NCBI GenBank assembly: GCA_031414955.1
Contig: JANOQV010000241.1
Location: forward strand, 1 to 39,431
DNA length: 39,431 nucleotides
Source of the DNA: Pedosphaera sp.
GTDB taxonomy: Bacteria > Verrucomicrobiota > Verrucomicrobiia > Limisphaerales > SIBH01
Direction: 5' to 3'
Made by a program: the position numbers and the translations under genes. Positions 7,101-38,184 of this stretch are shown here, piece by piece. Numbering within the stretch: the first letter of the stretch is position 1; each line of letters opens with the position of its first letter. The notes under the pieces were generated by a model. That model saw nothing but the letters and a program-made list of their open reading frames with translations. It was not told where the DNA came from and searched no databases.

Positions 7101-7293
7101 GCGCGCCTTCCTTGGTATCGAGACGCAGCTTGGCTTTGCGGCCTTTCTCCTCCGGCCCGTGGCAGTGGTAACACTTGTCGGAGAGGATGGGCAGGATGTC
7201 GCGGCCATAATCCACCGAGGCCGCGAGGACTGAACTCACCGCGAAGAAGGCGCAGGCCGGGACGGCTGAAATGTTTTTTATCCAACGGTTCAC
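4111..7293 (-). CDS. Planctomycete cytochrome c + DUF1549 + LamG + DUF1553 (PSD1/PSCyt) protein
   Basis: Signal peptide, CYHCH and CARCH heme motifs, MPP, HWAF, WLDLARYADT, central LamG-like region (WVHITTTYDG...GKVDDLKIFD), PTHPELLDWLA, TPLQALALLND. Confidence 0.92.
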   Translation of the reverse strand: MNRWIKNISAVPACAFFAVSSVLAASVDYGRDILPILSDKCYHCHGPEEKGRKAKLRLDTKEGALRTKDAIIIPGQSLESELVKRITTTNLDDQMPPPDSNRTLTPKQIELLTRWVEEGAPWGQHWAFVAPHQPVVPQVQGPTPINREQASKVQSPIDSFVLSRLQKEGLTPASEASNDTWLRRVTLDLTGLPPTLPELDAFLADASTNAHEKVVNRLLASPRYGERMATDWLDLARYADTHGYQMDRFRPMWPYRDWVIKAFNQNLPFDQFVTWQVAGDLLPNATRDQRLATAFNRLHNQNEEGGVVGEEYRVAYVVDRVNTFSTAFLGLTTECARCHDHKYDPITQKDFYSLFAFFQNIDEAGQTSYFTDSMPVPTLMLPTFEQERKVLELRGKIAAQEQHLTMAREPQRVEFAGWLAEPGRNTNMSVPGLIAHFSFDEIVSNKVVSLVGSNSAKAVEGPQLVEGKFGKAVELSGENGFTFGKLGHFNRADSFSLSLWLQTPSHSPRFVVLHHSKAPVDAGSRGFELLLEEGRVAFGLHHMWPGNSLKVTTRNALPTNEWVHITTTYDGSSQAAGTKLFINGELAELEIIRDGLAKDITYGGGEPELALGNRFRDNGFKNGKVDDLKIFDRTLTALEARQVAGREEFGRILSTPADKLTAKEREEVFDWFLAVFSPRQKQELQELHALRDELRKFIEPIPEIMTMVELPQPKPAYLLKRGAYDAHGEAVIASTPAALPPFPAGQPTNRLGLARWLLQPDHPLTARVTVNRLWQMMFGRGLVETSDNFGSQGAQPTHPELLDWLALDFSSNGWDVKRALKNIALSSTYRQSSKASSELVSRDPANELLARGPARRLTAEMLRDSALAESGLLVELIGGPSVKPYQPDGLWDIAMGKPKYDQGKGTALHRRSLYTYWKRTVPPPAMMTFDAADRSYCTVRRQNTSTPLQALALLNDVQIVEAARRLSQRMLQEGGTSLEERTTWMFRMVTHRKPTPNEITVLKKLFEEQHELFTADPKAAESLLSVGEARHAKGLDRIDLAAGTVLAQALLNHDATLMRR

Positions 7294-7507
7294 GACCGGC
7301 CGAGAATACTTTTATCGCCCGGTGGCGGCAATGGACGAATGACATGGGGGCCGTATTGGGGCGCAGTTGAGCACGGCTTCCGACTCGTGTGCCCGCAGTT
7401 AGCCGCGGAGCGGCGTTGTCCTTGTCATGAAGCTCGTTCAGGTCGCTCAAATCCAGATTGCAAACGAGGCTTGGCGCGCTGTGCGTTTTCAGTCACGTTC
7501 CGTCCGT

Positions 7508-10500: not shown

Positions 10501-10771
10501 CACGGACACGAACGGCGTGACCCTCCCGGCCTTGTTCGTGGCCGGGGTGATTCATCTGGAAGCGCTGCGGCTGGCGAGTGGCGGAGTGAGCAACGGAGTC
10601 TTCCGGTTGAGCTTTGGCGCGGTGAACGGCGAACGGTACGCCATCGATGCCTCGGCGGATTTGATCAACTGGACGCCGCTGGCCACCAACACCGCCGTGG
10701 GAAGCTCGATCCAGTTCCCCGACACCAACGCGCTGCCGCATCGTTTCTATCGCGCGCGTCCGCTGCCCTGA
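7508..10771 (+). CDS. Large secreted protein with lysyl-oxidase domain, three PPC-like beta repeats, Ig and cohesin-like domains, C-terminal FYR module
   Basis: Signal peptide from ATG 7508. LOX motifs LPDL, HAGHQHLH, KTSF, QGLSVGWADVY, QWIDVTDV...ESDESNN. Three repeats with S(V/I)W(Y/F)xWT...GSxFDT. Ig motif PLAYQW...YTVVITN. Confidence 0.88.
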   Translation: MRNSFTLRWLRVSLATILLATVLGRAGTTNFFEGFEGVLNPAWSVGDANASGTPAYWAIVDSAFGGEGTHGGGGKIYCAGLGYAGSTSTPTYRDSMSAYLQRSINLTGYSNATLSFWFKLPGVESGYDSANVYLDSTLLWSSDIAATGWTQVVLSLDAFVGGTHTLKFEFTSDTTVTAEGWYLDDILVVSGPGNDAFASAFLLTGGFGSVTNNNAAAGSEAGEPHPGNSVWYRWTARTNGLVTFRTGGSSFDTILCVYAGTNLLTLANVACDDNGGSNSTSLVSFNATNGVTYSGSVRGATNAEGAVVLSWDQPNGHGLDLLPDLSVWASQPNAYLYGWYLDSNQIPGRVLLRISTATPNSGTGPLELHGSSTTPGVSQRIFRNDGTWWERYAGTFTFHAGHQHLHFDNWLNFHLRSNLLNDAVGDIIVSGDKTSFAIIDLTPYNLALPGAPASGHYGGGLVQGLSVGWADVYGANLTDQWIDVTDVPAGRYWLEAIVDPENSILESDESNNASRILIDLNVGGGGGGSTNGPANNFFTNAFVLGGVIAAWADSNTGATREAGEPNHAGNSGGPSVWFRWTAPSNMNVTLTTEGSSFDTTLGVYTGATVASLAVVVSNDDVVSGTLWSRVTFSATSNATYRIAVDGYNGTSGSYELNLNPAWNDHFASSLVLTGASGTVSASTRGATRQAGETNHAGVFGSNSIWFSWTAALSGEAIFQTIGSGFDTLLGVYTGGSVAALTVVAADDNSAGGTASRVTFSAVAGSTYRIAIDGPAGARGLARLTWAGPTPPTILAQPLSTNVTAGSAATFSVTAVGSAPLAYQWRHQGTNLTDNLYVSGAHSPLLAFNKVQAANAGAYTVVITNAYGAITSAPGNLIVVDNPRVVFVEEAAGHSGAFVRVPVEIQSLGNEHAVSFSLTFDPAVLSNPRVTDVPAGAALVLNTNQVGTGALGVLVTLPAGGVFPAGDAGVAEFVFNTAPSPVALDTFVGFHLSPVPRLVTDTNGVTLPALFVAGVIHLEALRLASGGVSNGVFRLSFGAVNGERYAIDASADLINWTPLATNTAVGSSIQFPDTNALPHRFYRARPLP

Positions 10772-10868
10772 CGGAGCGCGGACCGCCGAGTCCGCGCGAT
10801 CATATCTGGCGATTCTGCGGGCGCATCCCGTTCGTTACGAACACGCGGACTCGGCGGTCCGCGCTCCG
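10772..10868. repeat. GGAG-type REP doublet (REPIN-like), possible bidirectional terminator
   Basis: Perfect 25-bp inverted repeat, 10772-10796 and 10844-10868 (CGGAGCGCGGACCGCCGAGTCCGCG). Each arm is GGAG plus the palindrome CGCGGAC..GTCCGCG. Fills the gap between two convergent stop codons. Confidence 0.88.
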
Positions 10869-10870
10869 CA

Positions 10871-13800
10871 TCAAGGTGCCGCCAGCCGGTAGAAGCGCGT
10901 CCCGTTGGTAGTAGGATCGGTGATGACGATGGTTCGCACCGTCGGTGCGGAAGCCACATTGGTCATTGGCAACCAGGTCAACGCCGTGAGCGTATCCTTG
11001 AACTGCACGGTGAAGGTGCGGTTCGAGGCCGCTGTGAATTCAAACTCCACCCCGCCGCCGGTCGCACTGATGCGCTCCACATGCAGGCGGCTGGCCGGAT
11101 TGTTCGGGTGCGTGCCGGCGAGATACTCCTGCCCGTTCGTGAAGCCGTCACTGTCGTTGTCATCGTTCGCGTCGGGCGTGCCGACCAGCGTGCCGTTGGC
11201 GATTTCCCACGCGTCGGGCAATCCGTCGCCGTCGCTGTCCACGTCGGCGTTCTCGCGGCCCGGCGTCGCGGTCGCGGCCTGCCAGTTGATCGGGTCGTCG
11301 CCATATTGATTTGAAAACTTGCGCTGGAGGGAAGGACCGCTTCCATCCGCCGCCGCCGGCCACGGCGCCTTGTCGTTGTAACGCACCGAGTCCACGACGA
11401 TGTAAGGCGTGCCGTTCGTGTCCGGCGCGTCGGGGCGCGTGAGCGAGAGGCGCTCGCCGCTGCCCTGCAACGAGCCGAGAAAATCGTAGGTGAAGATCGG
11501 CACGTTCACCGGCACCGAGTGGTTCGCGCGAAAGCCAGTGACGTTGCTGATCACGACAAGGACGAGTCCGCCGGGCGGCACGGTGAGGTTCGTCGGAAAA
11601 GTGAAGCCCACGCCTTCGAGCTTCCAGGTATTCGCCGGGAACGCCGCGTGGAACAGCGGCACGTTGGTCGCGCTGATGTTCTTCAATTCCACGAACGCAT
11701 CTTGTGGCATCACGGGATGGTAGTGAATCTCGTTGATGACGAGCGGCCCGACGCGCGGGCCGGAGTTGGTGGCGTTGAAAGTCGGGGAGATTTGCGCCGG
11801 GAACTGTTCCTCGCCCACGCTGTTGAGGTGGCGGCCAAAGGTCACGCCGTTCGCCGCCGCGCTGAAGCTGAAGCCGTGCGACCAGCCGGTGAGATTCGTG
11901 TTCGCATCACCGGAGAAAAGATAGACGAACTCGCCGCTGGAACTGAGTGAGAAGCTGTCGTTCGTGCCGGGAGTGGCGTTGAACTGCGTTTCGTCGAAAG
12001 TCAGGAAGCCGCCCGCGGTGATCGTCATGCCGTTGGGGATGCGATACTTCTTCAGCCGGCCGGATTCGTCCGTCAGGAACCAGCCGCCCACATCCACATT
12101 GGTCGCGGCGAGGTTGTGGATTTCAATGCGGTCCACCGCCGGCAGATCGGTGTGCGTGAGCACTTCGTTGACGACGACGGGGGCGATGAACGGCGCGGGA
12201 TCGTCCGCGCCGGGCGAACCGCCGCTGAACGTGCTGGCCCGCCACTTCGCGCCGTCGTCCGGGGCCTGGAACGTGCCGGGGAGCAATGGGACGAGCGAAA
12301 AGCCATGACCGTCCGGCGTCACCGGCCACGGCGCAGTGGTGCCGTAGGTGAGCGAAAGAATGGTCGGGCCGTAGGGCGGGCCGCCCGCCGCCTGCTGCGA
12401 GAGCGTGATCGTCTCCCCGTCGTTGGCGAGCTGTCCGGTGAAGAAGCCGTCCGCCGTCACGCCGGGATACTTCGCGTTGAACGGAATCCCGCTGCGCGCG
12501 AGGACGAAGAACTGGCCCGGCCCGAGCAGCGTGCCGTTGGTGAAGTTGAACGTGAAGCCGTCGGTGAACCCGCAGCCGGTCAGATCGAGAGCGTTCGTGC
12601 CGTAGTTTTTCAACTCGAGGAACTCCAGATCGCTGCTGCCAAAAGGCGCGAGCGCAGGCGGGCGGTACATGATTTCCGTCAAGGCCAGCTTCGAAAAATC
12701 CTGCGGTGGAAAGAACGTGGCCTCGGCCAGCGCGCTCCAGTTGCCGCCGCCAAGCACGCGCGAACGCACGAGCGTTGGCGCGTTGATCGGCACCGGCGTT
12801 GCGAACGCCTGCGCGCCCGCCGCGACCGCGCCGCTGCCATACACGCGCGGGTCGCTGCCGTCGGTGGTGAAGTAAATCGTCCCGCCGACATTCGTGTGCG
12901 TGATGGTGAGGGAGAAGCCTGCCGTTACGCTGCCGCCGAACTGGCTGAACACGGGAGCGCCGACGAGCGGATACAAATTGCCGGCTTGGAAGCGGGCCAC
13001 GTTGTCCGCCGTGAGCTTCTGGAAAAAGTTCGTCAGCGTTTTGTCGAGTTCCGGCCGCCACCATTCGTTGCGCGTGAAAGTATTGCTCGTGCCGATCTGC
13101 CCGGCGGGCACGCCGATCTTGCGCGCGTCACCCCAGCGCGCGGACTCGCCCACGAGGGCGTTGGTCAGTCCCGTGGACGCGGCGAGCAGGCGCGCGGCGT
13201 TCGCGGCCGGCGTGAGCGCGCCGCCGTTGAAGAGATGCTTATGAACGCGGTCGGCGAAGCGCAGGCGGAATTCCGGCCAGTTGCGGCACTGGAAGTAAAG
13301 ACGCGCGGGGCTGTATTGCTCGCCTGCGCCGCCGCCGTTGTTGCCCGCGTCAATGCGGTTGCGACGCACCAGCCGGTCGAGCACCAGCTCTTGATCCCAC
13401 ACGGCGAAGATAAATTTTGTGCCCGCCACGCCGTTCGTCGCGCGGCGGTGCGCGCCGTACCAGTTGTGTCGCGGCCAGTCCTCGGACTCAGCGACGATGT
13501 GGAGCATCATGTAGTCAATGAGGTTGTCCACATCCACGGCGTTGGTGATCGCGGCGTAGGCGGACTCGCTGGCGATGGGCGACGCGGCGAGCGCGAGCAC
13601 GGCGTTCCAGTCCGTGAGCGAGCCGTCCACGAGCACGGTCGGGCCGTTGTTGTCCTCGCCCACCACCACATCCCACGCGCCCTCGTCGCCGCCGAGATGC
13701 TGGCTGAAGTAATACGCGCCGTAGCGTTCCGAAGGGAAGTAGAGGCCCCAATACAAACCGTTGAGATAAAGATGCGCGAACGCGCTGCGGCTCGAAATCC

Positions 13801-16312
13801 AGCCCATGTCGCGGAAAGATCCCTTCACCCACACGTCGCGCAGGTAGAGCGTGTTCTCGGGACGATAGCGCAAGCCACGGAACTGCTCGCCGGTCTCGCT
13901 GCTGGTATAAATTGTGTTGTCCGCATAGCGACCAGCCCAGCCGTCCACGAAGCCCGCCGAGCGCAGGATGATCGCGTCGTGCGTTTTCACGCCGCCGCCG
14001 AACCAGTCGTAGTCGAGCTTGGTCGGGCCGTAGTCGCTGTTGAAGTTGAGCCGCATGGAATGCTTCGGCGTGCGGGCGTTGTCGCGGCTGGCGTTGCCGT
14101 GCATTTCCATCTTCGCCGTCGTGGCAAACTCGGTGCCGCCGTCGCCCGCGATCAATTCCGCCGAGGCTGCGCGTTCCCACGCCGCGCCGCTGCTGGTCGC
14201 GTTCGGGTAAATGCCGGTCGAGGAATTCCACAGGCCATCCTGGCCCGACACGAGCATCAGGCTCGGAATGCTCCGCAGATCGTTGCTGATGGTCGCGCCA
14301 TAGACGACGTGGTTCACGATGTTTGAGTCCATCGCGTAGTCGGCGGTGTAGGCGGCCTGCCAGAGCGTCGGGTAGCCGGGGATGTTGTTCGACTGACGCA
14401 GCACATCGGTCATGAAAATGTAGCTGTGCGTGTCCACGCCGCTCGGCACCCAGCCCGCCAGATACGCGGCGGCACGGATGAAACTGTTTCCCGTGATGCT
14501 GATGGGCGCGGTGTGCAGGAAGCCGTTGGTCGGCGCGGGCGCGCTGCCGTTCGTCGTGTAATAAATGCTGGCGCCGGCCGTGGCGCAGGTGATGGAGAGC
14601 GAGAAGGGCGCGTCGAAGAAGCCGCGGTCCACACTGAACTTGGTGTCGGCCACCACGCCGTAAAGCGCGGCACTGTTCGACGTGCCGGGCGTCACGGGTG
14701 CGAAGAAGCCGTTGGTGATCGGCTGCAAGCTGGCGATGAGCTGCGGCTCGATAAAAAAGTCCGAGTCACCCGCGGCGATGTTCAACGCCTGCACCGCGAG
14801 AATGTTGGTGCCACCGACCAGCAGTCCGGGAGCCGCGGGCAAAATGATGTCCTCGGCCACGGCGGACGAGTTGGTGGCGGTGGCGGCGGAGTCCCACGCG
14901 GGTGTAAGCGGGGCGTTGCGACGCGCGACCTCGGTGCCGTTGAGGTAGGCGATGAAGCCGTCATTGTACTTCACGCGCAAGGTGACCTGCGCCACCAGAG
15001 CGGGAGTGGAGACAATGAACGACTGCCGCGCGTAGAGCGTGGAGTTTAGGCCGGCTAGTGCAGTGGCGTTGCCGTTCGTGGCCGGCAGCAGGACGGCGGG
15101 CGTGACCTGAATCGCATTCAGGAAAACCCCGAAGGAAGCGATGGGTGTCGGGGCGGAGGCGTCCACGCTGGCCGGGTTGCGCCGGCCGCGAACCACCACG
15201 AGACCGTCCGCGTCCGACGTGGCGTCGAAGGTGAAGTTGTACTGGGCGTCGCTGGTCGGAAGCACCGTGCCGTTGAAGGCGTAGCCGTTGGTGGCCACCA
15301 CGCCATTGGCCGACCAGTCGGAGACACGGTTGCCTCCGCTGCCGCTGTCGTACGACCAGACAGTCAGGCGATGGAGCGCATTCGAGGCCAGGCCCGCCAG
15401 TGTGATGTCCAGTCCGCCGGTGGTGTTCAAATCCTGGGAGAAGACGAAATCGCGCAGCAACGGCGCGTTGGTGCCCCCGGCCGAATCCACCGGCGTGCCG
15501 CGCAGCCGATCATTGTAACCGAAGGGCAGGGTGTTCGACAGCGTGACGGAATAAGCGCCGTACGTTCGCACCGTCGCCTGAGTTTGCACGGCGGTGACAC
15601 TGACATTGGAGTTGATGACGAAAGGCTGAAAGCCCGCCAGCGTGTTGGTGGGGAAGTTGGAATTGCGCCGGTTGAAATCCACGCTCAGGAGCGCCGCCCC
15701 GGCCGGCGCGCTGAACAGGCCCACGTCGTAGCGCAGGGGCATGAGAGCGCTGCTCCAGGAAGAGTCATCGAATCCGGGCGCAGTCCAGGTCGCGCCGGGC
15801 GCGTCGCTCACTGGCACGAGCCAGCGCGTCGCGCCACCAGCGGCGAGGAGCGTGACCACGGCGCCGTTCGTGGTGCCGGGGCCGTAACTGACGTTGCGGT
15901 GTTGCTGCGGGTAATTGAACTCGCTGGCGATGACGCTGTTCGAGTCCACGAGGGCCAGATAGCCGCCGCCGTTCTGCAACTGGAAGTTGGCGTGCAACTG
16001 CGCGCCGTTGGTCGCGCGATCCTTGCCCGAGGCGAAGACGATCAGGTAGCCGCCGGCGGACAGATTGGTGGCGGGAAAAGCCCACTTGGCCAGGTTGGTC
16101 GGATTGTCCGTGAGCCGCCAGCCCTCAAGGCTGACCGCCAGCACGCTGGTGTTGCGCAGTTCGATCCAGTCCGGCGTGTCGCCGTCCTGATCGATCAGCC
16201 CGCCGTCGTTCTCGGCCAGGAATTCAGAAATGATGATGGTGGCGGCCCGGCTGCTTTGACCGAAGGCGAAAAGAGACAGGCATAGGGCGAGAATGTGACA
16301 GCTTTGGCGCAT
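10871..16312 (-). CDS. Secreted CotH-kinase / lamin-tail-domain protein with Fn3-associated and TSP3-like repeats
   Basis: Signal peptide from ATG 16312. Four LTD-like starts (ISEF..DWIEL, TEIMY..EFLEL, NEVL..RIEI, NEIHY..FVEL). CotH motifs HGNASR, KHSMRL, LYLNGLYWGLY, DWPRHNW, WDQE. DSDGDGLPDAWE repeat. C-terminal RFYRL. Confidence 0.9.
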   Translation of the reverse strand: MRQSCHILALCLSLFAFGQSSRAATIIISEFLAENDGGLIDQDGDTPDWIELRNTSVLAVSLEGWRLTDNPTNLAKWAFPATNLSAGGYLIVFASGKDRATNGAQLHANFQLQNGGGYLALVDSNSVIASEFNYPQQHRNVSYGPGTTNGAVVTLLAAGGATRWLVPVSDAPGATWTAPGFDDSSWSSALMPLRYDVGLFSAPAGAALLSVDFNRRNSNFPTNTLAGFQPFVINSNVSVTAVQTQATVRTYGAYSVTLSNTLPFGYNDRLRGTPVDSAGGTNAPLLRDFVFSQDLNTTGGLDITLAGLASNALHRLTVWSYDSGSGGNRVSDWSANGVVATNGYAFNGTVLPTSDAQYNFTFDATSDADGLVVVRGRRNPASVDASAPTPIASFGVFLNAIQVTPAVLLPATNGNATALAGLNSTLYARQSFIVSTPALVAQVTLRVKYNDGFIAYLNGTEVARRNAPLTPAWDSAATATNSSAVAEDIILPAAPGLLVGGTNILAVQALNIAAGDSDFFIEPQLIASLQPITNGFFAPVTPGTSNSAALYGVVADTKFSVDRGFFDAPFSLSITCATAGASIYYTTNGSAPAPTNGFLHTAPISITGNSFIRAAAYLAGWVPSGVDTHSYIFMTDVLRQSNNIPGYPTLWQAAYTADYAMDSNIVNHVVYGATISNDLRSIPSLMLVSGQDGLWNSSTGIYPNATSSGAAWERAASAELIAGDGGTEFATTAKMEMHGNASRDNARTPKHSMRLNFNSDYGPTKLDYDWFGGGVKTHDAIILRSAGFVDGWAGRYADNTIYTSSETGEQFRGLRYRPENTLYLRDVWVKGSFRDMGWISSRSAFAHLYLNGLYWGLYFPSERYGAYYFSQHLGGDEGAWDVVVGEDNNGPTVLVDGSLTDWNAVLALAASPIASESAYAAITNAVDVDNLIDYMMLHIVAESEDWPRHNWYGAHRRATNGVAGTKFIFAVWDQELVLDRLVRRNRIDAGNNGGGAGEQYSPARLYFQCRNWPEFRLRFADRVHKHLFNGGALTPAANAARLLAASTGLTNALVGESARWGDARKIGVPAGQIGTSNTFTRNEWWRPELDKTLTNFFQKLTADNVARFQAGNLYPLVGAPVFSQFGGSVTAGFSLTITHTNVGGTIYFTTDGSDPRVYGSGAVAAGAQAFATPVPINAPTLVRSRVLGGGNWSALAEATFFPPQDFSKLALTEIMYRPPALAPFGSSDLEFLELKNYGTNALDLTGCGFTDGFTFNFTNGTLLGPGQFFVLARSGIPFNAKYPGVTADGFFTGQLANDGETITLSQQAAGGPPYGPTILSLTYGTTAPWPVTPDGHGFSLVPLLPGTFQAPDDGAKWRASTFSGGSPGADDPAPFIAPVVVNEVLTHTDLPAVDRIEIHNLAATNVDVGGWFLTDESGRLKKYRIPNGMTITAGGFLTFDETQFNATPGTNDSFSLSSSGEFVYLFSGDANTNLTGWSHGFSFSAAANGVTFGRHLNSVGEEQFPAQISPTFNATNSGPRVGPLVINEIHYHPVMPQDAFVELKNISATNVPLFHAAFPANTWKLEGVGFTFPTNLTVPPGGLVLVVISNVTGFRANHSVPVNVPIFTYDFLGSLQGSGERLSLTRPDAPDTNGTPYIVVDSVRYNDKAPWPAAADGSGPSLQRKFSNQYGDDPINWQAATATPGRENADVDSDGDGLPDAWEIANGTLVGTPDANDDNDSDGFTNGQEYLAGTHPNNPASRLHVERISATGGGVEFEFTAASNRTFTVQFKDTLTALTWLPMTNVASAPTVRTIVITDPTTNGTRFYRLAAP

Positions 16313-16405
16313 AAATATTTGGGATGGCCGAAAGCTACTACACCGGCAGGCGTTCTTACAACACAACGCTACGGGCAACAGGCTGAAGGTGTCTGCCCGG
16401 ATTCG

Positions 16406-17845
16406 CTAGGCGACGATGCCCTTCACCAAATCACCGGCGATGCCTGTCAGCCGTGCGTCGAGCCCCTGGAACTTCACCGTCAGCCGCTTGTGATCGATGC
16501 CGAGCAGGCGGAGCATCGTGGCGTGCAGGTCGTGGACGCTCACCACGTCTTCGACGGAGCGGTAGCCCAGCTCGTCGGTGTTGCCGAACATCGTGCCGGC
16601 CTTCACGCCGCCGCCGGCCAGGAAGACGGAGAAGGCGAGAATGTGATGGTCGCGCCCGCTGCCCTGGCTCATGGGCGTCCGCCCAAACTCGCCGCCCCAC
16701 AGGATGAGCGTGTCGTCGAGCAGGCCGCGCTGCTTCAAGTCCTTGATGAGCGCGGCGCTCGCCTGATCCGTGGCCTTCGCGGCCTTGGGCATTTCCTTCT
16801 CGATGTCGCCGTGATGATCCCACGCGCGGTGATAAAGCTGAATCATCCGCACGCCGCGCTCGGCGAGTCGGCGGGCCATGAGGCAGTTCGAGGCGAAGCT
16901 GCCGTCGCCCGGCTCCTTCACGCCGTACATTTCCAGCATCTCCTTCGGCTCGTTCTTGAAGTCCGTCAGTTCCGGCACGGAACTTTGCATGCGGAACGCG
17001 AGTTCGTACTGCGCGATGCGCGTCTGGATTTCCGGGTCGATGTGGTCCTCGGCCAGAATGCCGTTGAGGCGGTTGATTTCCTCGACGACCTGACGCTGCG
17101 TGCTCTGGCAGACGCCTTCGGGATTGCCGATGTAATGCACCGCGTCGCCCTTCGACTGAAATTGAATCCCTTGAAATTTGCTCGGCAGAATCCCGCTCGA
17201 CCATTGCCGCGCCGACACCGGCTGTGCGCCCGAACTGCCCTGCGACGTGAACACGACGAAGCCCGGCAGGTTGTCCGTCTCCGCGCCGAGTCCGTAGAGC
17301 AGCCACGAACCCATGCTGGGCCGGCCCTTGATGATCGAGCCGGTGTTCATGAAGGCGTGCGCCGGGTCGTGGTTGATCTGCTCCGTCTGCATCGACTTGA
17401 TCACGCACAGTTCGTCCGCCACTTCCTGCAAGTGCGGGAACAGGTTCGAGATCGAGATGCCCGACTTGCCGCACGGCTTGAATTCCGTGAACGCGCCGCG
17501 CGCCTTCAACTCTGTGTTCTGCAACTGCGCGAGCTGTTGTCCTTTGGTGAACGATTCGGGAAACGCCTTGCCATCAAGCTTCTTCAACTCCGGCTTCCAG
17601 TCGAACGTCTCCAGATGCGAAGGCCCGCCCGCCATGCAGAGGTGGATGACGCGCTTGGCCTTGGGCGCGAAGTGCAACGGGTTCAACACGCCGCGCCATT
17701 TGCCGGGAGCGGCTGGCTCGGCGGCGAAAATTCTTGGGTCCATCAGGCCGGCCAGCGCGAGTCCGCCGAGACCGTAGGCGGAGCGGCGCAGGAAGGTGCG
17801 GCGGTTGACGGAGAGGGCGAACTTTTGCAGGTCGAAGGGTTTCAT
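16406..17845 (-). CDS. DUF1501 protein (alkaline-phosphatase/sulfatase superfamily), Tat-exported
   Basis: NRRTFL Tat motif, KAKRVIHLCMAGGPSHLETFDWKP, WDHH, GEFGRTP, GRDH, HDLHAT. Start at ATG 17845; the upstream extension is translated repeat DNA. Confidence 0.93.
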   Translation of the reverse strand: MKPFDLQKFALSVNRRTFLRRSAYGLGGLALAGLMDPRIFAAEPAAPGKWRGVLNPLHFAPKAKRVIHLCMAGGPSHLETFDWKPELKKLDGKAFPESFTKGQQLAQLQNTELKARGAFTEFKPCGKSGISISNLFPHLQEVADELCVIKSMQTEQINHDPAHAFMNTGSIIKGRPSMGSWLLYGLGAETDNLPGFVVFTSQGSSGAQPVSARQWSSGILPSKFQGIQFQSKGDAVHYIGNPEGVCQSTQRQVVEEINRLNGILAEDHIDPEIQTRIAQYELAFRMQSSVPELTDFKNEPKEMLEMYGVKEPGDGSFASNCLMARRLAERGVRMIQLYHRAWDHHGDIEKEMPKAAKATDQASAALIKDLKQRGLLDDTLILWGGEFGRTPMSQGSGRDHHILAFSVFLAGGGVKAGTMFGNTDELGYRSVEDVVSVHDLHATMLRLLGIDHKRLTVKFQGLDARLTGIAGDLVKGIVA

Positions 17846-17867
17846 GGTGAGGAGGGCGGAGGGGGAA

Positions 17868-17922
17868 AAGATCCAAGAACCAAGCACCAAGCTCCAGAGA
17901 AACACCAAGCACCAAGATCCAA
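17868..17922 (+). repeat. 55-bp heptamer module A (inverted relative to B and C)
   Basis: AAGATCC AAGAACC AAGCACC AAGCTCC AGAGAAACACC AAGCACC AAGATCC AA. Confidence 0.9.
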
Positions 17923-17957
17923 CCAGCGTCCGGAGACGCTCGCACGTCCGCCGCATA

Positions 17958-18534: not shown

Positions 18535-21702
<3,168 letters not shown>

Positions 21703-21853
21703 TGGAAGTTTTGATGCTGGCCTCGATCCGGGTATTTCACAAGAATAGTGTTAATCGTGGCGGAAGTTATTTGACCAAATTGCGCGTTTGCCATCGCTCA
21801 TACAAATCCAACCTGGGGCGGTGTCATTCAGTTAGGAATCGAATACTGCTGTT

Positions 21854-23308
21854 ATGAAGAAATCTGACAAGGCCCCATCTGCAAACACCGCGAGTGCGCC
21901 GCGCCCGGCGATTCGGCCCTGGCTCGTGCTCGGCGCTTGCATGCTGTTGCTGTGCGTCATGGCCGGTCTGGTATTCCTGCTGCGCCAAACGCCCGGCGGT
22001 GTCGGAGTCCAGCCCGGGGCAAATCCTCCGGCGACCGTGTCCCCGGATGTTTCTTCCACCAATCCTCCCCGTCGTTTCGGCACCGCCTTCCCGACGCGAG
22101 CCGAAGCCACCAACGCCGCCAACTCCGAGGAGATCGTCGCCGCGAAATTGATCCGCTTCGCCGCCAATCGGAGAGCGTTGCTGCGCGCCTACGCGGTCGA
22201 GTTGAAGGTGGCGGTGCCCGCTGATTACGAGAAATTCTTTGACCTCGCCGAAGCTGGGAACTGGGCGGACCTGCACGCGCTGTTCCTGGATTTGAAGGAG
22301 CGGCGGCAGGGCGGCGAACTGGAAACCATCGAGCAAACCAGGCTTTGGACCGCCCTCTTCGATACCCACGGCGTGGCCGAGATCGCGCATGATTGGCCCG
22401 CGCAGCAGTTGCTGGACTATGGGCATTCCGTGGTTGGCGCGTTGCGGCCGGGGATGATTTATCTCGGCGGCACCGACGCCGGGCGATTCATCCCCACGCT
22501 GCTGAATGAAACTGACGGCGGCGAACGGCATGTGGTGCTGACGCAGAACGCCCTGGCCGATTCCAGCTACCTGCAATTCGCTGCCTTCCTCTACCGCGAT
22601 CAGCTCAACGCGCTCACGGCCACAGATTCCGAGCAGGCGTTCAAAGGCTACATGGACGACGCTCAGAAACGCCTCCAGCACGACCAGGATTTCCCCAACG
22701 AGCCCAAGCAAATCCGACCCGGAGAAGACGTGCGCATGATCGATGGCAAAGTTCAGGCGAGTGGACAGGTCGCCGTCATGGCCATCAACGAAAGGTTGGT
22801 CCAGGCGTTGATGGGGAAAAATCCCGATGCGTCCTTTGCGATGGAAGAATCCTTCCCGTTCAATTCCGCTTACGCCCAAGCGGCGCCGCTCGGGCCTCTC
22901 CTTGAATTGCGCGCCAGCGAAGCTGCGGCCGGTATCAGCCCCGAGCGCGCCGCGCTGTCCGCTGAGTACTGGCGCACTACCATGCAACAGTTGCTGGCCA
23001 ACGGGGGCGAAGCCCTTCCCTCTGAGACACGCGATGCATATTCCAAAATGCTTTCAGCCCAGGCGGGGTTGCTGGCCTCCCGGCAGCGCGCCGCAGAGGC
23101 CGAACAGATTTTTCGCCTGGCCGCCGATCTCACGCCGTCGCATCCCGAACTGGTCTTCCGCCTCGTTGAACTGCTGGTGCGACAACAGCGCGTCGGGGAC
23201 GCCATCGACATCGTACAACGGGCGGCGGCCAATGATTCAAAGGCGAACGACCCATTCCAGAACCTGCTGGTGCAACTCCAGCGAATGAAAGCCCAGAGGG
23301 TGAATTGA
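21854..23308 (+). CDS. Single-TM protein paralogous to the C-terminal soluble domain of the DUF2723 protein, with TPR-like tail
   Basis: One N-terminal TM helix. Shares GGTDxGRF, TQNALAD, RPGEDVR, KVQxSGQVAVMAIN and EESFP with the 30017-33745 product. Confidence 0.85.
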   Translation: MKKSDKAPSANTASAPRPAIRPWLVLGACMLLLCVMAGLVFLLRQTPGGVGVQPGANPPATVSPDVSSTNPPRRFGTAFPTRAEATNAANSEEIVAAKLIRFAANRRALLRAYAVELKVAVPADYEKFFDLAEAGNWADLHALFLDLKERRQGGELETIEQTRLWTALFDTHGVAEIAHDWPAQQLLDYGHSVVGALRPGMIYLGGTDAGRFIPTLLNETDGGERHVVLTQNALADSSYLQFAAFLYRDQLNALTATDSEQAFKGYMDDAQKRLQHDQDFPNEPKQIRPGEDVRMIDGKVQASGQVAVMAINERLVQALMGKNPDASFAMEESFPFNSAYAQAAPLGPLLELRASEAAAGISPERAALSAEYWRTTMQQLLANGGEALPSETRDAYSKMLSAQAGLLASRQRAAEAEQIFRLAADLTPSHPELVFRLVELLVRQQRVGDAIDIVQRAAANDSKANDPFQNLLVQLQRMKAQRVN

Positions 23309-30016: not shown

Positions 30017-33000
30017 TTACTTGTTGGTCGCGAGCAGTTGCTGGAAGTCGGCGTTGCCCTTGAGCGAGGCGAACCGGAGGTCGCCGGCGATGGTCGGGGC
30101 GATGTTGGGCTGCGAGGCGTTGGTCTTGAGGCGCGCCTTGTTCAGGCTCAACGCTTCGCGCAGGGTGGAGATGGCTTCCTTCTGTTTGTTCTGCACGGCC
30201 TGCGCGGCGGCGTAGTCAAGCCAGGCTTCGGGGGTGGGCTTGATGGTGGTCCAGCGGGCCAGCGCCTTCTCCAGCTTCGGAAAATCCGTCAACTGCTGGT
30301 AGATTTGCGCGGCCAGGCTGATCATCTGCTCGTCCGATTTTGGGTTGGCGATGATTTCGTCGGCCAGGCGGAGGACATCTCCTGTACGACCAGTCGAGGC
30401 GTAGAACTGCGCAAGGGCGAAGGCGTCCTGGAAGTTGCCTGGGTTCTTTTTGTAGGCGGCTTCGAGTTTTGCGCCGTTGGGGTCGGCGGCGGGCGGCGGG
30501 GTGGCGGCACCGGCACCGGGTCCGCCTTTGAGGCGTTTGAGTTCCACGATGAGATTCACCAAGCCGGCGTTGTTCGGATCCACTTTCACGGAGGTCTCCG
30601 CCAGCAGGATGGCGTCGTCGAAGCGGCGCGCGCCGGCCAGGACTTGCACGTAGCGGTAGAGCGCCTCGGGGCTGTAGGGGCAGAAGGCGAAGGCCTGCTT
30701 GAAGGCGAAGTCGGCTTCCTTGAAGACGCGACGGTAGGATTCGAGGATGCGCTTCTGGTCCACCGTCAGCGAATTAGTGGGCATCTGCTCAAATTGCATC
30801 GCGCCCTGCTCGGCCAGCTTGGTCAGACGCCAGGCATAGACGCCGGCGATGGAGCTGCGCAGCTTGGAGAAGGCTTTCTGGCCGTCGTCATCGCGGACGA
30901 AGCGCGGGTCGCCGGTGAAGCCGCGGAAATCCTTGTTCACATACACGCGCTCGGCGAACTGGGTGATGTTCGAGATGGGCGTGTCGTAGGTGATCCAGTT
31001 GCCGATGAGGCGCTCGGAATAATCGCTCCAGAAGTTGTGATCCTTGTCCAGGATGTCCTGGGTCAACTCGGCCAGGGGCTGGCGGTTGATCTTCATGATG
31101 ACGCCGAAGGGCGTGAGGTGCGGATACATCCACTCGAGTGGAAAACTTTCCTCGACGTAGAATTCGTTGGTCGGGTTTTTCTCGAAGATGACCTTGGCCA
31201 ACAGGGCGTTGATGGCCATGACCGCGACCTGACCGGAGACCTGGACCTTGTTGTCCACCACGCGCACGTCTTCGCCGGGTCGGAGCGCGCCCTTGGCCAT
31301 GCGGGCCTGGGCGTCGGCCATGTATTCGGAAAAGCAGCGCTGCGAATCCTCGTTGGAAGGCGTGTTGATTTCCACTGGCGGATAGACTCCGCGGGCACGG
31401 CGTTCCTTCTCGATGCGGGCACCGTTGTTCATAAAGAAACTATCCAGCGGCACCGCGACCATTTTGGCCAGGAGGTTGGTCTTGAAGTTCAACTCGCGCT
31501 CCTTCTGGCTGCGGAACAACTCGCCGAAGAACGGAATGTCCGGCTCGGTGCTGCGGTTGTAATGCGCGCGGATGTATTGCAGGTAGGTGCCGTCGGCCAG
31601 CGCGTTCTGGGTGATGATGTAAACGTCGCGGCGATCGAACTCGGGATCGCGGCGGTCCTTGGGCGCGATGAAGCTCTCGCAGAAAATCATGTAGGTCGGG
31701 CAGAAGCGGCCGGGGTCAGTGCCGCCGAAGAGGATCGTGTCGCGCGCCATCTCGGGATAGATCTTGGCCTTGCCCTCGGGCGTCTTCATCAGCTCTTCAC
31801 GCTCGGCGCGGGCATACTTGAGCGTGCCGTCTTTGCCCTTGTAGGGCGGGGTGAACATGTCGTGGCCGAAGTAGAAGCCAAACAAGTGGCCGCGCTGTTC
31901 GTTTTCCGACCAGTGGGCCGCGATGGTCCAGACGGGCATGAGAAAGGCCAGCCCCAGCAGCACGGCCAGTGGCGCTTTCTGCCGGGCGGCGAGCACCGCC
32001 AAAGCCCCGAGCAAGGCCAGTCCGAAACCCCAGACGGAGGCGAAACGCAGAATCCAATACGGCGTTTCGCCGTAGGTCTTGAGCACGCCGAAGACCAGCG
32101 ATCCCGTCGCCAGCACGCTGAAGCTGATCAGCGCGTAGCGCCGGTACTTCTGATACTGCGTCACCAGTGTGGCCAGCGTGAGGGTCAGGCCGTATCCGAT
32201 GGCGAGGGTGATGATGAAGTGCGAGGCGATGAAGAATGGTTTGTTCAACGACACGCTTTGCCGGTCCGGCGCGGGGTTGAACAGTTCGAGCAGGAACGGT
32301 CCCAGCACGAGGTAGAAGGCCAGCAACCCGATCAGCCAGGCGCGCTCGCGCGGTTGCAGTTTGCGGAAGAAGAGCAGCGGCACCAGACCCAGCAGCAAAT
32401 AGCCCAGGCTGAATTCCTCCATCGGGCCTTCCACGAGGAACGACTTGCACTGCTGCGCGTAGCGGGTCACCCAGGACACGGTTTGCTCGACGATGTTGTT
32501 GCCCGTGCCCGCCGTGGGATGAATGCGCTCGTACTGGCCGCGGGTGAAGGCGTGGACGAAGCCGTTCACGGTGCGGGGATAACCCCAGTTCAACGGCGGG
32601 TTCGTCATCGAGGCCAGCGGCATGTAGAGGTAGAAGGCCGCGCCGATGATGAAAAAGACTCCCGTGCCCAGCGCCTTGCGCCAGTGCGGCATCCAGGGCA
32701 GGGGCTGCTTGTTGAACCAGAAATAAAGATCCAGCGCCGTGTAAACCGCCACCACCACGCCGACCCCGACCATCATGCCGGACATGCCCTTGAACCAGAG
32801 AAAGCCGATGGCGACTTTGGCTAGGATAACATCACGAACCAAATCCGCGCCGTTGGCCCGGGTGCGGATGGAGAGCCAGATCCAGCCGAGAATCGAGCCG
32901 ATGCCGACCAGCGTGTAAACGACCATGACGGGCGTGTTGCCGCTGAGCAGCGAGAGTTCGCCTTTGCCCTTGAGGATGAGGCCCATGATGTAAGCCACCC

Positions 33001-33745
33001 CGTTCCAGAAGAGCATGGACCGACCCAGCTTGGCCTGCACCAGCACGATCAGAATCTCCATCGCGATGGTGATGACCAGGAGCGATTGATGGTTGTTGAA
33101 GGCGATGCCGCAGAGGAACCAGGCCAGGTAAAGATACCGGTACTGGTTCGGCGCATACGACCAGTGCAGCAGGCAGACCAGCACGCCGGTGATGGAAAGC
33201 ATGCTCAATGAATACACCTCCACGATGACCGACTGGCTCCACATGAAGCCGTTGAAGGCGATGATCAGCGCGGAGACGAAGCCGCTCGCCAGGCAAATCC
33301 AGTTCTCCACCTTGCGCTCGATGCCCTTCAAGTCCGCCACGCTCTCGATGAACATGCTGCTGCCGCGCGAGACCATCAGCGCCACCAGCCCGCAGGCCAG
33401 CGCGCCGGCAAAGGCCGACGACACGCCCACCCGCCAGGCGATGTTCGAGAAGGGAACAATCTTCGTGAAAAGCCAGGTGTAGATGGTCCACACCGGGTAG
33501 CCGGGCGGATGCGGCACGCCGGCATACATCGAGCCGACGGCCATTTCGCCGGAGTCCTCCAGCGTCAGATCCGGAGCCAGCGTGTACATGTAGCCGACGA
33601 ACACGAGCAACGAGGAGAGGATGAATCCAATCCAGTCGATGCGTCGGAAAAGGGGCGGCGCTTTGGGCGTCGTCGTGGTCGGAGTTGGGGCCGGCGCAGC
33701 AGAAAGGTTCGCCGCCGTGGGGCGTTTCGGAGATTCAGAAGCCAT
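30017..33745 (-). CDS. DUF2723 / TMEM260-like GT-C membrane glycosyltransferase with large soluble domain and TPRs
   Basis: EDSGE and GVPHPPGYP near the N-terminus, WSQSVIVEVY, NHQS, YLYMPL..S..NPPLNWG. Many TM helices, then a soluble domain and TPR-like helices. Confidence 0.87.
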   Translation of the reverse strand: MASESPKRPTAANLSAAPAPTPTTTTPKAPPLFRRIDWIGFILSSLLVFVGYMYTLAPDLTLEDSGEMAVGSMYAGVPHPPGYPVWTIYTWLFTKIVPFSNIAWRVGVSSAFAGALACGLVALMVSRGSSMFIESVADLKGIERKVENWICLASGFVSALIIAFNGFMWSQSVIVEVYSLSMLSITGVLVCLLHWSYAPNQYRYLYLAWFLCGIAFNNHQSLLVITIAMEILIVLVQAKLGRSMLFWNGVAYIMGLILKGKGELSLLSGNTPVMVVYTLVGIGSILGWIWLSIRTRANGADLVRDVILAKVAIGFLWFKGMSGMMVGVGVVVAVYTALDLYFWFNKQPLPWMPHWRKALGTGVFFIIGAAFYLYMPLASMTNPPLNWGYPRTVNGFVHAFTRGQYERIHPTAGTGNNIVEQTVSWVTRYAQQCKSFLVEGPMEEFSLGYLLLGLVPLLFFRKLQPRERAWLIGLLAFYLVLGPFLLELFNPAPDRQSVSLNKPFFIASHFIITLAIGYGLTLTLATLVTQYQKYRRYALISFSVLATGSLVFGVLKTYGETPYWILRFASVWGFGLALLGALAVLAARQKAPLAVLLGLAFLMPVWTIAAHWSENEQRGHLFGFYFGHDMFTPPYKGKDGTLKYARAEREELMKTPEGKAKIYPEMARDTILFGGTDPGRFCPTYMIFCESFIAPKDRRDPEFDRRDVYIITQNALADGTYLQYIRAHYNRSTEPDIPFFGELFRSQKERELNFKTNLLAKMVAVPLDSFFMNNGARIEKERRARGVYPPVEINTPSNEDSQRCFSEYMADAQARMAKGALRPGEDVRVVDNKVQVSGQVAVMAINALLAKVIFEKNPTNEFYVEESFPLEWMYPHLTPFGVIMKINRQPLAELTQDILDKDHNFWSDYSERLIGNWITYDTPISNITQFAERVYVNKDFRGFTGDPRFVRDDDGQKAFSKLRSSIAGVYAWRLTKLAEQGAMQFEQMPTNSLTVDQKRILESYRRVFKEADFAFKQAFAFCPYSPEALYRYVQVLAGARRFDDAILLAETSVKVDPNNAGLVNLIVELKRLKGGPGAGAATPPPAADPNGAKLEAAYKKNPGNFQDAFALAQFYASTGRTGDVLRLADEIIANPKSDEQMISLAAQIYQQLTDFPKLEKALARWTTIKPTPEAWLDYAAAQAVQNKQKEAISTLREALSLNKARLKTNASQPNIAPTIAGDLRFASLKGNADFQQLLATNK

Positions 33746-33748
33746 AAA

Positions 33749-34141
33749 TCAATGCACAGGACGATTCGTGTTCAACAAGTCAAAAGAGCGCACACTTGAG
33801 CCGACCCCGCTGTCGTTTGTCCAACCCAAAATCGGGGCGCTGAAGGTGTTGTGTGGGGCCGTGGCCATGGCGAGCGAGGCAAGATGGTTGCTTAACGGGG
33901 CGAACTGCATGGTGATCATGTGCCCCCCGGGCGAGTGCGTCAGGTTCAGCACGGTGAACATCAAGGTCGCGCTGGCTGCGAGGCTGACGCCCAGCGTCTG
34001 ATACCAGGGCAGGGCGATGGTGCGCGGCCGGACTTCCTGCTCCTGACCCGCGGCTCCAAACAGCGACTGCTCAATGCGCGGGGAGGGACGCCGGGGCGTC
34101 CACGAGCGCATCTGCTCTTCCAACGAATTCGGTGTCTTCAT
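33749..34141 (-). CDS. Putative membrane anti-sigma factor
   Basis: 130 aa. Short N-terminal LEEQMRSWTPRRPS segment followed by one hydrophobic segment. Overlaps the ECF sigma 3' end; its stop is 3 bp from the DUF2723 start. Confidence 0.6.
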   Translation of the reverse strand: MKTPNSLEEQMRSWTPRRPSPRIEQSLFGAAGQEQEVRPRTIALPWYQTLGVSLAASATLMFTVLNLTHSPGGHMITMQFAPLSNHLASLAMATAPHNTFSAPILGWTNDSGVGSSVRSFDLLNTNRPVH

Positions 34142-34604
34142 AATTCTGCTCCTTCAAACAAGTCCGCAGCTTTTCCATTCCGTAGCGATACCGGCCCGCC
34201 ACTGTGTTCGGCGACGTCTCCAGTAAAGCGCCAATCTCCTCGAAGGTGTGCTCGTGCCAGATTTTTAACACGATGACTTCACGCTGGTCCGGCGGGAGCT
34301 TTTGCAGGCAGCGCAGCGCGGCCCGCTCCTGCGGCGTTTCGTGTTCGGTGCGCTCGAACCAGGTTTTGGACTCCAGTTCCCGCGTCCACCTTCGCAATAG
34401 CCCCCGCTTGTAGTTCAGCGCCCGGTTCCGGAACCCGCGGATGCAGTAATGCAGCCCGTTTTCCGGCTCCCGCTCCATCTTCAGCAACGCCATGAAGGTT
34501 TCCTGCACCACATCCTCCGCCTCACCGTGACTCAGGCCCAGCGCGCGTCCATACAGCAGGAGTTCGCTCGCCTTTGCCTCATAGAGTTGCTTTTGCCAGT
34601 CCAC
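34071..34604 (-). CDS. ECF sigma-70 factor
   Basis: Region 2 EAEDVVQETF; region 4 LPPDQREVIVLKIWHEHTFEEIGALLETSPNTVAGRYRYG. Confidence 0.92.
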   Translation of the reverse strand: MDWQKQLYEAKASELLLYGRALGLSHGEAEDVVQETFMALLKMEREPENGLHYCIRGFRNRALNYKRGLLRRWTRELESKTWFERTEHETPQERAALRCLQKLPPDQREVIVLKIWHEHTFEEIGALLETSPNTVAGRYRYGMEKLRTCLKEQNYEDTEFVGRADALVDAPASLPAH

Positions 34605-34621
34605 AGCTTGTTTTCACCCGA

Positions 34622-34648
34622 TAGACACCATCGGGTCGGGGATTTGTA
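34622..34648 (-). promoter_or_regulatory. Candidate ECF autoregulatory promoter
   Basis: Minus strand TACAA-N16-TGTCTA, about 18 bp before the sigma GTG start. The -10 lies in the loop of the inverted repeat ACCCGAT/ATCGGGT (34616-34636). Confidence 0.4.
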
Positions 34649-35026
34649 TAATGTTTTTCAACTTCCGGCGATTCGATTCTCAGCCGAGTGGAGAGAGCCA
34701 GGCGGTCGCGAACTGGTCTGCCCTATTCCGGGAAAATCAAATAAGTCCAAACGCCACGACCTTTTTGCCCAAAGCCATCGGAGCGGACGTTGCGTCTGGC
34801 GGCCGATCCCCCCAACCCGTCGTCCGCCCGGACAGTTGTTTTCCCCACCGGCTCTTTACGCCCCGCTCCGGCCGCGAGACCACAGGTCAATTGGTTTGCC
34901 TTCGTTCACTTGGACGCGGCTGCGCCTGAAGATCGCCCTCTACCAACGGTTTCAAGATGCATCCTTATTACCCGCGCCTGGCCTTTGTTGTTTGCAGCCG
35001 GATGCTGCCTCTGAAATTATCCCGAC

Positions 35027-37844: not shown

Positions 37845-38129
37845 GAACCGCGAGGCCGGAAAGCCTCGCCACCTGCCGACAGAAATGTCGGCGCCACGGT
37901 AATGGCCCATCATCGTAACGCCGGCTTTCCAGCCGGCAGGTAACGAGACTTTCCAGTCTCGTGCTCCTCCTGTGTTGTTCAGGTTGGAGTGTTGAGAGAG
38001 CCATTTGGAACGGGAGGATCGAAAGCCTCCCTACCTGCCGACAGGAATGTCGGCGCTACGGCGGTGGCCCGCTGTCGTAACGCCGGCTTTCCAGCCGGCA
38101 GGTGGCGACACTTTCCAGTGTCGCAGTTC
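37845..38129. repeat. Four double-hairpin REPs upstream of RAYT
   Basis: Copies at 37845-37898 (-), 37914-37966 (+), 38008-38060 (-), 38076-38129 (+). Consensus CGT(A/G)(A/G)C-GCCG(A/G)C-loop-G(T/C)CGGC-AGGT-second hairpin-GTTC. Confidence 0.9.
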
Positions 38130-38184
38130 CTCGCTTTTCATTTTCAACTCGACTGGCCCAGCACCGCGCGGATACCTCCACTCC

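Follow-up and report, generated by a model that had tools for sequence, protein, structure and literature searches.

Gene S and its product

A 39,431-nt stretch of DNA from Pedosphaera sp. (Verrucomicrobiota; Limisphaerales; contig JANOQV010000241.1 of assembly GCA_031414955.1, positions 1 to 39,431), hereafter called the window, carries a gene, designated S, whose predicted product is a membrane-anchored, stand-alone copy of the soluble lobe of a glycosyltransferase related to human TMEM260. The enzyme of that type, designated L, is encoded in the same window on the opposite strand, as the third gene of an operon that also codes for an extracytoplasmic function (ECF)-type sigma factor and a small protein with one transmembrane (TM) segment. 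The features on which the analysis turns are the following, with model confidence given as the predicted local distance difference test score (pLDDT).

21800-21825, forward strand: promoter-like motif in two parts, ATACAAATCC-N10-GGTGTC, with its end 28 nt upstream of the ATG of S
21854-23308, forward strand: gene S, predicted to encode a 484-aa bitopic membrane protein with a stand-alone, putatively acceptor-binding lobe
21914-21985, forward strand: TM helix of S, aa 21-44 (AlphaFold2 helix; hydrophobic stretch in the sequence)
21986-22114, forward strand: disordered tether of S, aa 45-87, rich in Pro, Ser and Thr (pLDDT <50)
22124-22441, forward strand: helical bundle of S, aa 91-196 (AlphaFold2 helices, pLDDT >90)
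22442-22933, forward strand: Rossmann-like α/β domain of S, aa 197-360, homologous to aa ~660-895 of L
22940-23302, forward strand: helical array of S resembling tetratricopeptide repeats (TPR), aa 363-483 (model and PF14559)
30017-33745, reverse strand: gene L, encoding a 1,242-aa TMEM260-like GT-C glycosyltransferase with its own Rossmann-like and TPR lobe
31061-31771, reverse strand: Rossmann-like part of L (lobe alignment)
33749-34141, reverse strand: 130-aa open reading frame (ORF) between the sigma gene and L, with one TM segment, candidate anti-sigma factor
34071-34604, reverse strand: gene for an ECF-type sigma-70 factor (PF08281, E 3e-12; PF04545, E 6e-10; PF04542, E 1e-4)
34624-34649, reverse strand: a further occurrence of that motif, with its end 19 nt upstream of the GTG start of the sigma gene

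In S, a basic cytoplasmic tail of 20 residues precedes the TM helix, no lipobox is seen in the sequence, and the columns of the tether are unconserved in an alignment of 36 S-type sequences (43-74% identity to S). The same 36 sequences underlie an AlphaFold2 model of the full-length protein, with a mean pLDDT of 81 and a predicted template modeling score (pTM) of 0.74, and 60 of their columns are invariant. The helical bundle, which has no equivalent in L, closes with an invariant junction, WPAQxLLDYG (W181, P182, Q184, L186, L187, D188 and G190). The Rossmann-like domain, the separate model of which reached a pLDDT of 90.8 and a pTM of 0.86, carries the motifs GGTD(208)xGRF, TQNALAD, SGQVAVMAIN and EESFP; D208 does not vary in any of the 36 rows and reaches a conservation of at least 90% in all three architectures (see below). 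PF14559 (TPR_19) matches aa 409-473 with an E-value of 1.2e-5 and 26 bits, the cut-off being 25. Structure searches with the full-length model returned TPR and other helical matches only, all of them on the helical regions. PF11028, the TMEM260-like family, gave no match to S at E<=1, and with its single TM helix the protein has no multi-pass GT-C module; Pfam searches did not detect Peptidase_M56 (PF05569) in S either, and no zf-HC2 or RskA-type sigma-binding domain was found by Pfam or NCBIfam in the 20 residues before the TM helix.

A lobe shared with a TMEM260-like glycosyltransferase

Human TMEM260 is described as an O-mannosyltransferase in which a GT-C membrane ‘wrist’ is followed by a luminal lobe made of a ‘palm’ with a Rossmann-like fold (aa 416-564) and ‘fingers’ built of TPRs (aa 565-706; structures PDB 9RQL, 9RQM and 9RQN) (bioRxiv 10.64898/2026.03.17.711096). 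The lobe clasps an extended acceptor peptide, with contacts by R439, G440, P443, E466 and I523, and D441 of the palm acts as the catalytic base, the D441A variant being inactive, while the donor contacts reported there all come from the membrane part (bioRxiv 10.64898/2026.03.17.711096). L belongs to this family, as PF11028 matches its aa 64-235 (E 1e-28) and PDB 9RQL matches aa 48-236, the first membrane helices (E 2e-13); TPRs are found at its C-terminus. In Atlas clusters at a score of 0.87, 13-29% of the members bear the label PF28495 ‘TMEM260_2’, a name that was seen as a label only.

The relationship between S and L had been proposed in an earlier note on this DNA, written from the sequence alone, which matched the two genes motif by motif. 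Both ORFs, pairwise BLASTP (S 250-479 versus L 792-1073, E 2e-28) and an alignment of 81 family members bear this out. In the latter, made with MAFFT, the upstream motifs that BLASTP had left unjoined align in register, namely IYLGGTDAGRF in S with ILFGGTDPGRF in L and VVLTQNALADSSYL in S with YIITQNALADGTYL in L, so that the homology is real and far beyond chance. The positions assigned to the motifs also fit, with GGTD at about 22466 and EESFP at 22844-22858 in S, and at 31726 and 31139-31153, respectively, in L. The name ‘DUF2723 domain’ given to the shared lobe had to be dropped, since PF11028/DUF2723 spans the membrane part only, in the copy of Pfam used.

The shared domain counts 173 residues in S and 237 in L, and the insert of about 60 residues that the note had seen in the enzyme measures 64. 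The insert is present in the Limisphaerales-type L clade (L of the window and loci L067, L070 and L073, in which the domain has 232-248 aa) and absent from all S and M56 forms. As the L-type proteins of Kiritimatiellia and Lentisphaerota have short domains of 160-162 aa without it, it represents a gain in the Limisphaerales-type L clade rather than a loss in S. The acidic sugar-recognition loop after the first TM helix of L, TLEDSGEM (LEDSGE at aa 62-67), in which E63, D64, G66 and E67 are invariant in 13 of 13 L-type proteins, and which corresponds to the loop of D52 in TMEM260, has no counterpart in the sequence of S or in the alignment. AlphaFold2 and the alignment agree with the note that the multi-TM region and its DSGE motif are replaced in S by one TM helix, to which a tether and the helical bundle are added.

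S and L lie 6.7 kb apart on opposite strands and do not form one operon; genes for a ThiF/rhodanese protein, a phosphorylase, a deaminase, a hybrid kinase and a P-type ATPase stand between them. In the loci taken from other genomes, whose ORFs were called greedily, no GT-C gene occurs within 10 kb of S-type genes, and the closeness of the two in the window looks accidental. Co-folding of the membrane domain of L (aa 30-640) with S (aa 100-484), run without controls, scored 0.00 against a mark of 0.32, a value that weighs neither for nor against contact. The genome codes for a second PF11028 protein (E 1e-9), a 1,034-aa open frame on contig C14 (G000:C14:52807-53268, L006), which has its own diverged lobe (VLMSDDA..., ILIDTGALPD...) that the S query had missed; similar second copies were present in four of the five other genomes checked.

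A promoter-like motif common to S, S2 and the sigma operon

Three genes of this genome, namely S, its paralogue S2 on contig C305 and the sigma gene, share the sequence tATACAAATyc-N10-GGTGTC, which ends 19-28 nt before the start codon; the wider consensus of this bipartite motif is tATACAAATyc-N9-10-cGGTGTCtat. Across the 6.55 Mb of the genome (about 62% GC), ACAAATC-N11-GGTGTC has exactly three exact matches, one before each of these genes, and no match is found for the reversed pattern used as control. Specificity is confined to the bipartite form. The 10-mer ATACAAATCC alone occurs at 11 genomic sites, and the nine outside the window, mostly inside ORFs, have no common flanks except for a repeated element (L086/L092). 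Relaxing the pattern to TACAAA-N13-14-GTGTC yielded four sites, as many as its reversed control, the fourth (on contig C125) lying inside a 1,351-aa ORF. Eight sites with one mismatch to the bipartite motif, seven of them where the frame is open across the region, were left uncounted. Apart from the motif, the segments 21703-21853 and 34605-34800, upstream of S and of the sigma gene, respectively, share CGGAAGTT and GAATCGAAT in a different order and spacing; they have eight 8-mers in common, a number reached by none of 5,000 shuffles and none of 1,524 other segments of the window.

The association extends to other genomes. When their loci were scanned for ACAAA-N11-15-GTGTC between -200 and +250 of gene starts, the pattern was found near 37 of 58 short S-type genes versus 0 of 948 other genes. 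It was absent from all seven fusions of 700-950 aa and present at one of 13 long forms (by eye, a chance match), one of seven BlaI-like genes and one of three sigma genes, or all three if one mismatch is allowed. The pattern TACAAAT-N11-12-GGTGTC occurs at 27 sites in 20 of 41 genomes of the order, the control pattern at three. The 24 sites that are not those of the genome itself stand before sigma orthologues (16 sites), S-type genes (two) or other ORFs (five), or at a contig edge (one). The 16 sites, in as many genomes, are 17-40 nt ahead of sigma genes of 51-82% identity, which are mostly followed by an orthologue of the candidate anti-sigma factor and, where the contig continues, by L. Sigma genes of one cluster are also upstream of L-type genes in L067, L070 and L073. 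The 130-aa ORF has no Pfam match, and it has orthologues behind the sigma orthologue of 13 other genomes (tblastn, 30-58% identity). A sigma operon with its own promoter is the usual autoregulated layout, and the spacing TACAAA-N16-GTC is compatible with ECF-type promoters; we infer that this sigma factor reads the motif as its promoter.

A few further ORFs stand behind the motif. Two S-less genomes of the genus have it (G004:C460:2330-2354 and G005:C318:2715-2739; L105 and L107) before the gene for a 74-aa protein, orthologous between them, with a single TM segment and an outer tail rich in Ser and Thr. This protein might be a further member of the regulon or a substrate. The others include proteins of 178 aa, anchored in the membrane (L111), and of 574 aa, with several TM segments (L110).

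Conservation, phylogeny and distribution of S

Among 8,000 candidates scored, 1,293 homologues of S were found at E<=1e-3; the best 120 are 345-540 aa long with E<1e-126, and full-length homologues of 440-490 aa reach 80% identity. A profile of the Rossmann-like domain retrieved 1,153 representative clusters at E<=1e-3 among 1.84 billion proteins. The ratio of non-synonymous to synonymous substitution rates (dN/dS), calculated by the method of Nei and Gojobori (NG86), is 0.15-0.35 in 11 of 11 pairs, with dS near saturation and the ratios accordingly rough. S2 shows 48% identity to S and has the same architecture. In a tree of the shared domain, which is based on 174 columns and leaves many forks unresolved, 33 S-only rows, S and S2 among them, form a clade with a support of 100 in the Shimodaira-Hasegawa-like approximate likelihood ratio test (SH-aLRT), apart from L of the window, which indicates that S is old and not a recent duplicate. 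Contigs from four DNA runs were compared with S. At a depth of about 2.5, those from X3 and X4, which look like one data set filed twice, show nine changed codons, five synonymous and four non-synonymous, including G223V at an otherwise invariant column; these changes are too few and the depth is too shallow for use.

L-type genes occur in 39 of 41 genomes sampled from the order and S-type genes in nine. In a stricter first look at 401 genomes of the phylum, any match was obtained in 153 and an S-type gene in five. All 18 S-bearing genomes examined have an L-type gene, so the distribution is not one in which S lives mainly in genomes without the full-length enzyme, as the earlier note had contemplated.

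Several observations were made on the loci around S-type genes. In the clade designated S', a context of SufBD, FUR, methyltransferase and radical-SAM genes is conserved, which we take for synteny between closely related genomes. Four loci (L030, L035, L038 and L039) have an ECF-type sigma gene of another cluster (c9) close to S; as candidate partners of S these genes were discarded, four loci being judged too few in view of how common ECF-type sigma genes are in these genomes. Three S'-type genes follow one another at L060:8485-12680, the first of which has lost the GGTD and TQNALAD motifs (GGTG..., VQDDLAR). Seven S-type loci (L008, L022, L028, L031, L053, L062 and L063) come from metagenome-assembled genomes (MAGs) labelled Bifidobacterium, Acidimicrobiaceae, Acidoferrum, Limnocylindria, Bifidobacteriaceae, Methylomirabilota and Pseudomonadales; six of them nest among Verrucomicrobiota sequences in the tree, in which L008 is not included, and the labels are probably artefacts of binning or labelling.

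Reuse of the module in signalling proteins

The S module is also found as part of larger proteins. In seven loci from other genomes it stands C-terminal to a BlaR1-type Peptidase_M56 membrane domain (PF05569, E 1e-29 to 1e-36), and in an eighth, L072, the two parts are in overlapping frames, owing to a frameshift or an assembly error. These M56-S genes are:

L041:8837-11287, L042:8861-11290, L045:10309-12891 and L047:1254-3755: M56-S genes (PF05569)
L055:8045-11593, L058:8774-11554, L072:8739-11155 and L083:5796-8174: M56-S genes (PF05569)

A gene for a BlaI-like repressor (PF03965, E 2e-25 for a representative) is directly upstream in seven of the eight loci. According to hidden Markov models built in this analysis, the 150 best representatives retrieved with the domain profile comprise 26 proteins with M56, 19 with GT-C and 105 with neither. 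One protein, P0122 (1,776 aa), combines a Ser/Thr kinase (aa 84-386), WD40 repeats and the S module (aa 1337-1750), and another, P0121 (863 aa), WD40 repeats and the module. M56 and kinase fusions match S from aa 88-135 onwards, thus with the helical bundle; GT-C forms match from about aa 195-202, without it. Every one of these architectures retains the GGTD and TQNALAD loops, the sole exception being one copy of the tandem triplet. The module has thus repeatedly been recruited as the outer domain of signalling proteins, which argues that the acceptor site of the enzyme has been reused as a ligand sensor.

Other combinations include M56, an S part and a SecDF P1-head in P0145 (1,012 aa), and the S module with a prenyltransferase/squalene-cyclase-like toroid at L057:243-2678. 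The array at L045:8500-12891 consists of an S' gene, then a BlaI-like gene, then the M56-S gene. In L083, from a Kiritimatiellae MAG, the M56-S gene (5796-8174) is directly upstream of an L-type GT-C gene (8015-11257) with overlapping frames, the only physical linkage of the sensor form with the enzyme that was seen.

Proposed role of S and alternatives

The reading favored here, with a probability that we place a little above even, is that S is a non-catalytic periplasmic receptor that binds acceptors in the pathway of the sigma factor and the GT-C enzyme. Its short cytoplasmic tail, its TM helix and a tether of ~45 residues would hold the module at the inner membrane, and the module would consist of the helical bundle, the ‘palm’ and the ‘fingers’, the latter two homologous to the lobe of L and the conserved acceptor-site loops GGTD208 and TQNALAD retained. 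Devoid of the donor-binding membrane domain, S could bind but not glycosylate, and by analogy with TMEM260 its ligands may be acceptor-like peptides. The motif that S and S2 have in common with the operon of the ECF sigma factor, the candidate anti-sigma factor and L suggests that S is made with the enzyme under one dedicated sigma factor, and points to an undescribed envelope circuit. S might be a sensor that reports the acceptor load to the anti-sigma factor, or an adaptor that holds substrates and presents them to L, and these two versions appear about equally likely.

A more ambitious and clearly tentative version, possible but on balance doubtful, makes S-type proteins the periplasmic sensors of a feedback loop for the glycosylation of envelope proteins. 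In such a loop, the catalytically disarmed lobe would measure free, unglycosylated acceptor segments and signal to the small anti-sigma factor, and the ECF sigma factor thereby freed would raise the amounts of the sensors as well as that of the GT-C enzyme. Fusions to M56 or a kinase would represent the same sensor wired to other outputs.

The earlier note had taken S for a non-catalytic adaptor, decoy or regulator of the enzyme, or for a sign that the soluble domain has an activity of its own. That S is a real, selected, stand-alone version of the soluble lobe of the enzyme is now supported by the homology, the dN/dS ratios and the number of homologues. The absence of every donor-binding element, the presence of L in all 18 S-bearing genomes examined and the motif in common with the enzyme are in line with the non-catalytic part of the proposal, and fit an adaptor, decoy, regulator or sensor alike.

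A number of observations weigh against the receptor interpretation. S-type genes are found in only two of 12 genomes of the genus, and their presence in few L-bearing genomes marks S as accessory, not as a partner that L requires; the co-occurrence of the two is weak evidence, given that nearly all genomes of these lineages have L. No conserved neighbour genes were found in the S-clade loci from other genomes, and 21 of the 58 S-type genes lack the motif as written. The structural parallel with TMEM260 also has gaps. PDB 9RQL is absent from the Foldseek and VIA-align lists for both models of S, its presence in the libraries searched not being established; the L-type profile meets 9RQL in the membrane part only; the profile of the Rossmann-like domain has no TMEM260 match in the PDB; and no conserved Asn in the TPR part of S or of L-type proteins corresponds to the asparagine ladder of the TMEM260 TPRs.

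S might instead be a trans-acting catalytic subunit, a palm that supplies its general-base Asp to the GT-C module of L or of another enzyme and so widens or switches acceptor specificity. The invariance of D208 in the alignment and its retention in three architectures speak for this idea, as do the co-regulation of S with L and the existence of several paralogues (S and S2, or the three tandem genes of L060), which would suit alternative specificity subunits. However, both PF11028 proteins of the genome carry their own lobe, so that no lobe-less wrist is known in it, S has an additional helical bundle and a long flexible tether, and this Asp is also present in the fusions with M56 or a kinase, which are not expected to transfer sugars. 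A catalytic role in trans is considered improbable.

Equally small is the credence given to the idea that S is an enzyme in its own right, with a Rossmann-like domain that acts on a periplasmic substrate and is unrelated to polyprenyl-linked sugar transfer. It draws on the many invariant polar residues after β1, after β2 and in the following helix (D188, D208, Q231, N232, D236, D269, R273, H276, D277, E283, E291, Q305, N323 and E351).

We likewise hold it unlikely that S is a general TPR scaffold of the envelope, preceded by a housekeeping or lineage-wide promoter element and related to L for historical reasons only. Such a protein would be expected to behave as S does in not sharing an operon with L, in being unlinked to it in other genomes, in lacking conserved neighbours and in being absent from most L-bearing genomes. 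Yet the motif is not general, given its absence from the 948 other genes and its three exact sites in the whole genome, and of the 24 sites in relatives, 18 stand before a sigma-L operon or an S-type gene.

Lastly, the earlier note had raised the possibility of a decaying duplicate. Such a relic, here of the 3' half of L, for which nothing more than the partial homology speaks, is refuted by the intact frame, the >1,000 homologues, some as close as 80% identity, the low dN/dS and the well-supported S-only clade.

Significance

Bacterial TMEM260-like GT-C enzymes are uncharacterized; in the literature searched, DUF2723 was met only for the human enzyme, and TMEM260 was not found together with ‘Bacteroid’. 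The locus gives the family a regulatory context, with a dedicated ECF sigma/anti-sigma operon, a deeply conserved promoter-like motif and a small set of genes that appear to be co-regulated, chiefly stand-alone copies of the substrate-binding lobe. S could serve as a soluble and anchorable tool for studying acceptor specificity in a family whose human member is a disease gene. The locus also opens the way to experiments in Verrucomicrobiota on the ligand of the lobe, the trigger of the sigma factor and the envelope proteins that are glycosylated.

Other genes of the window

The window also codes for two PSCyt/PSD1 (DUF1549/DUF1553) proteins, one of which has a DUF1501 partner, a 1,114-aa lysyl-oxidase-like protein with Ig domains, a 1,835-aa protein with LTD and CotH-kinase domains, and an IS200-like Y1 transposase. 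Pairs of PSD1/DUF1553 and DUF1501 genes are in keeping with a genome of PVC type. The coordinates of the genes, as one list, are:

4111-7293, 16406-17956, 18535-21702 and 10871-16378, reverse strand
7427-10771 and 38005-38868, forward strand

Comparison with known systems

SDF2 and SDF2L1 are stand-alone MIR-domain proteins related to the luminal domain of the PMT O-mannosyltransferases. Like S in the favored reading, they are soluble copies of the substrate-side domain of an O-mannosyltransferase that serve as non-catalytic client-binding factors; they differ from it by their β-trefoil fold, their setting in the eukaryotic endoplasmic reticulum and the lack of control by a sigma factor.

CnrH/CnrY/CnrX is a three-part ECF system with a separate membrane-anchored periplasmic sensor. 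The parts recall those considered here, namely an ECF sigma factor, a small anti-sigma factor (here the 130-aa candidate) that has one TM segment and a short tail in the periplasm, and a distinct periplasmic protein anchored in the membrane that could be the sensor, but there is no homology, and S is encoded elsewhere in the genome than the sigma operon.

The extracellular penicillin-binding domain of BlaR1 is its sensor domain. Relatives of S hold the module at the equivalent place, with a PF03965 repressor gene upstream, as in the BlaR1/MecR1 systems. S itself differs in that it has no M56 domain, that its cytoplasmic tail of 20 aa could not signal alone, and that its gene stands behind a sigma-type motif and not in a BlaI operon.

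The closest counterpart is TMEM260 itself, to which S is linked through L, the PF11028 member that matches 9RQL. S differs from it in lacking the GT-C membrane domain, the EDSGE-type loop and the donor site, and in having a helical bundle and a tether. The likeness lies first in the same order of domains, Rossmann-like then TPR, over nearly the same length (288 residues, aa 197-484, in S versus 291). It extends to the palm, where D208 of S lies in a Gly-rich loop after the first strand (G-T-D208-x-G), to be compared with R439, G440, D441 and P443, and where a second conserved polar cluster, Q231-D236, follows 23-28 residues after D208, to be compared with E466 of the human protein. D208 of S would correspond to D441, the catalytic base of TMEM260.

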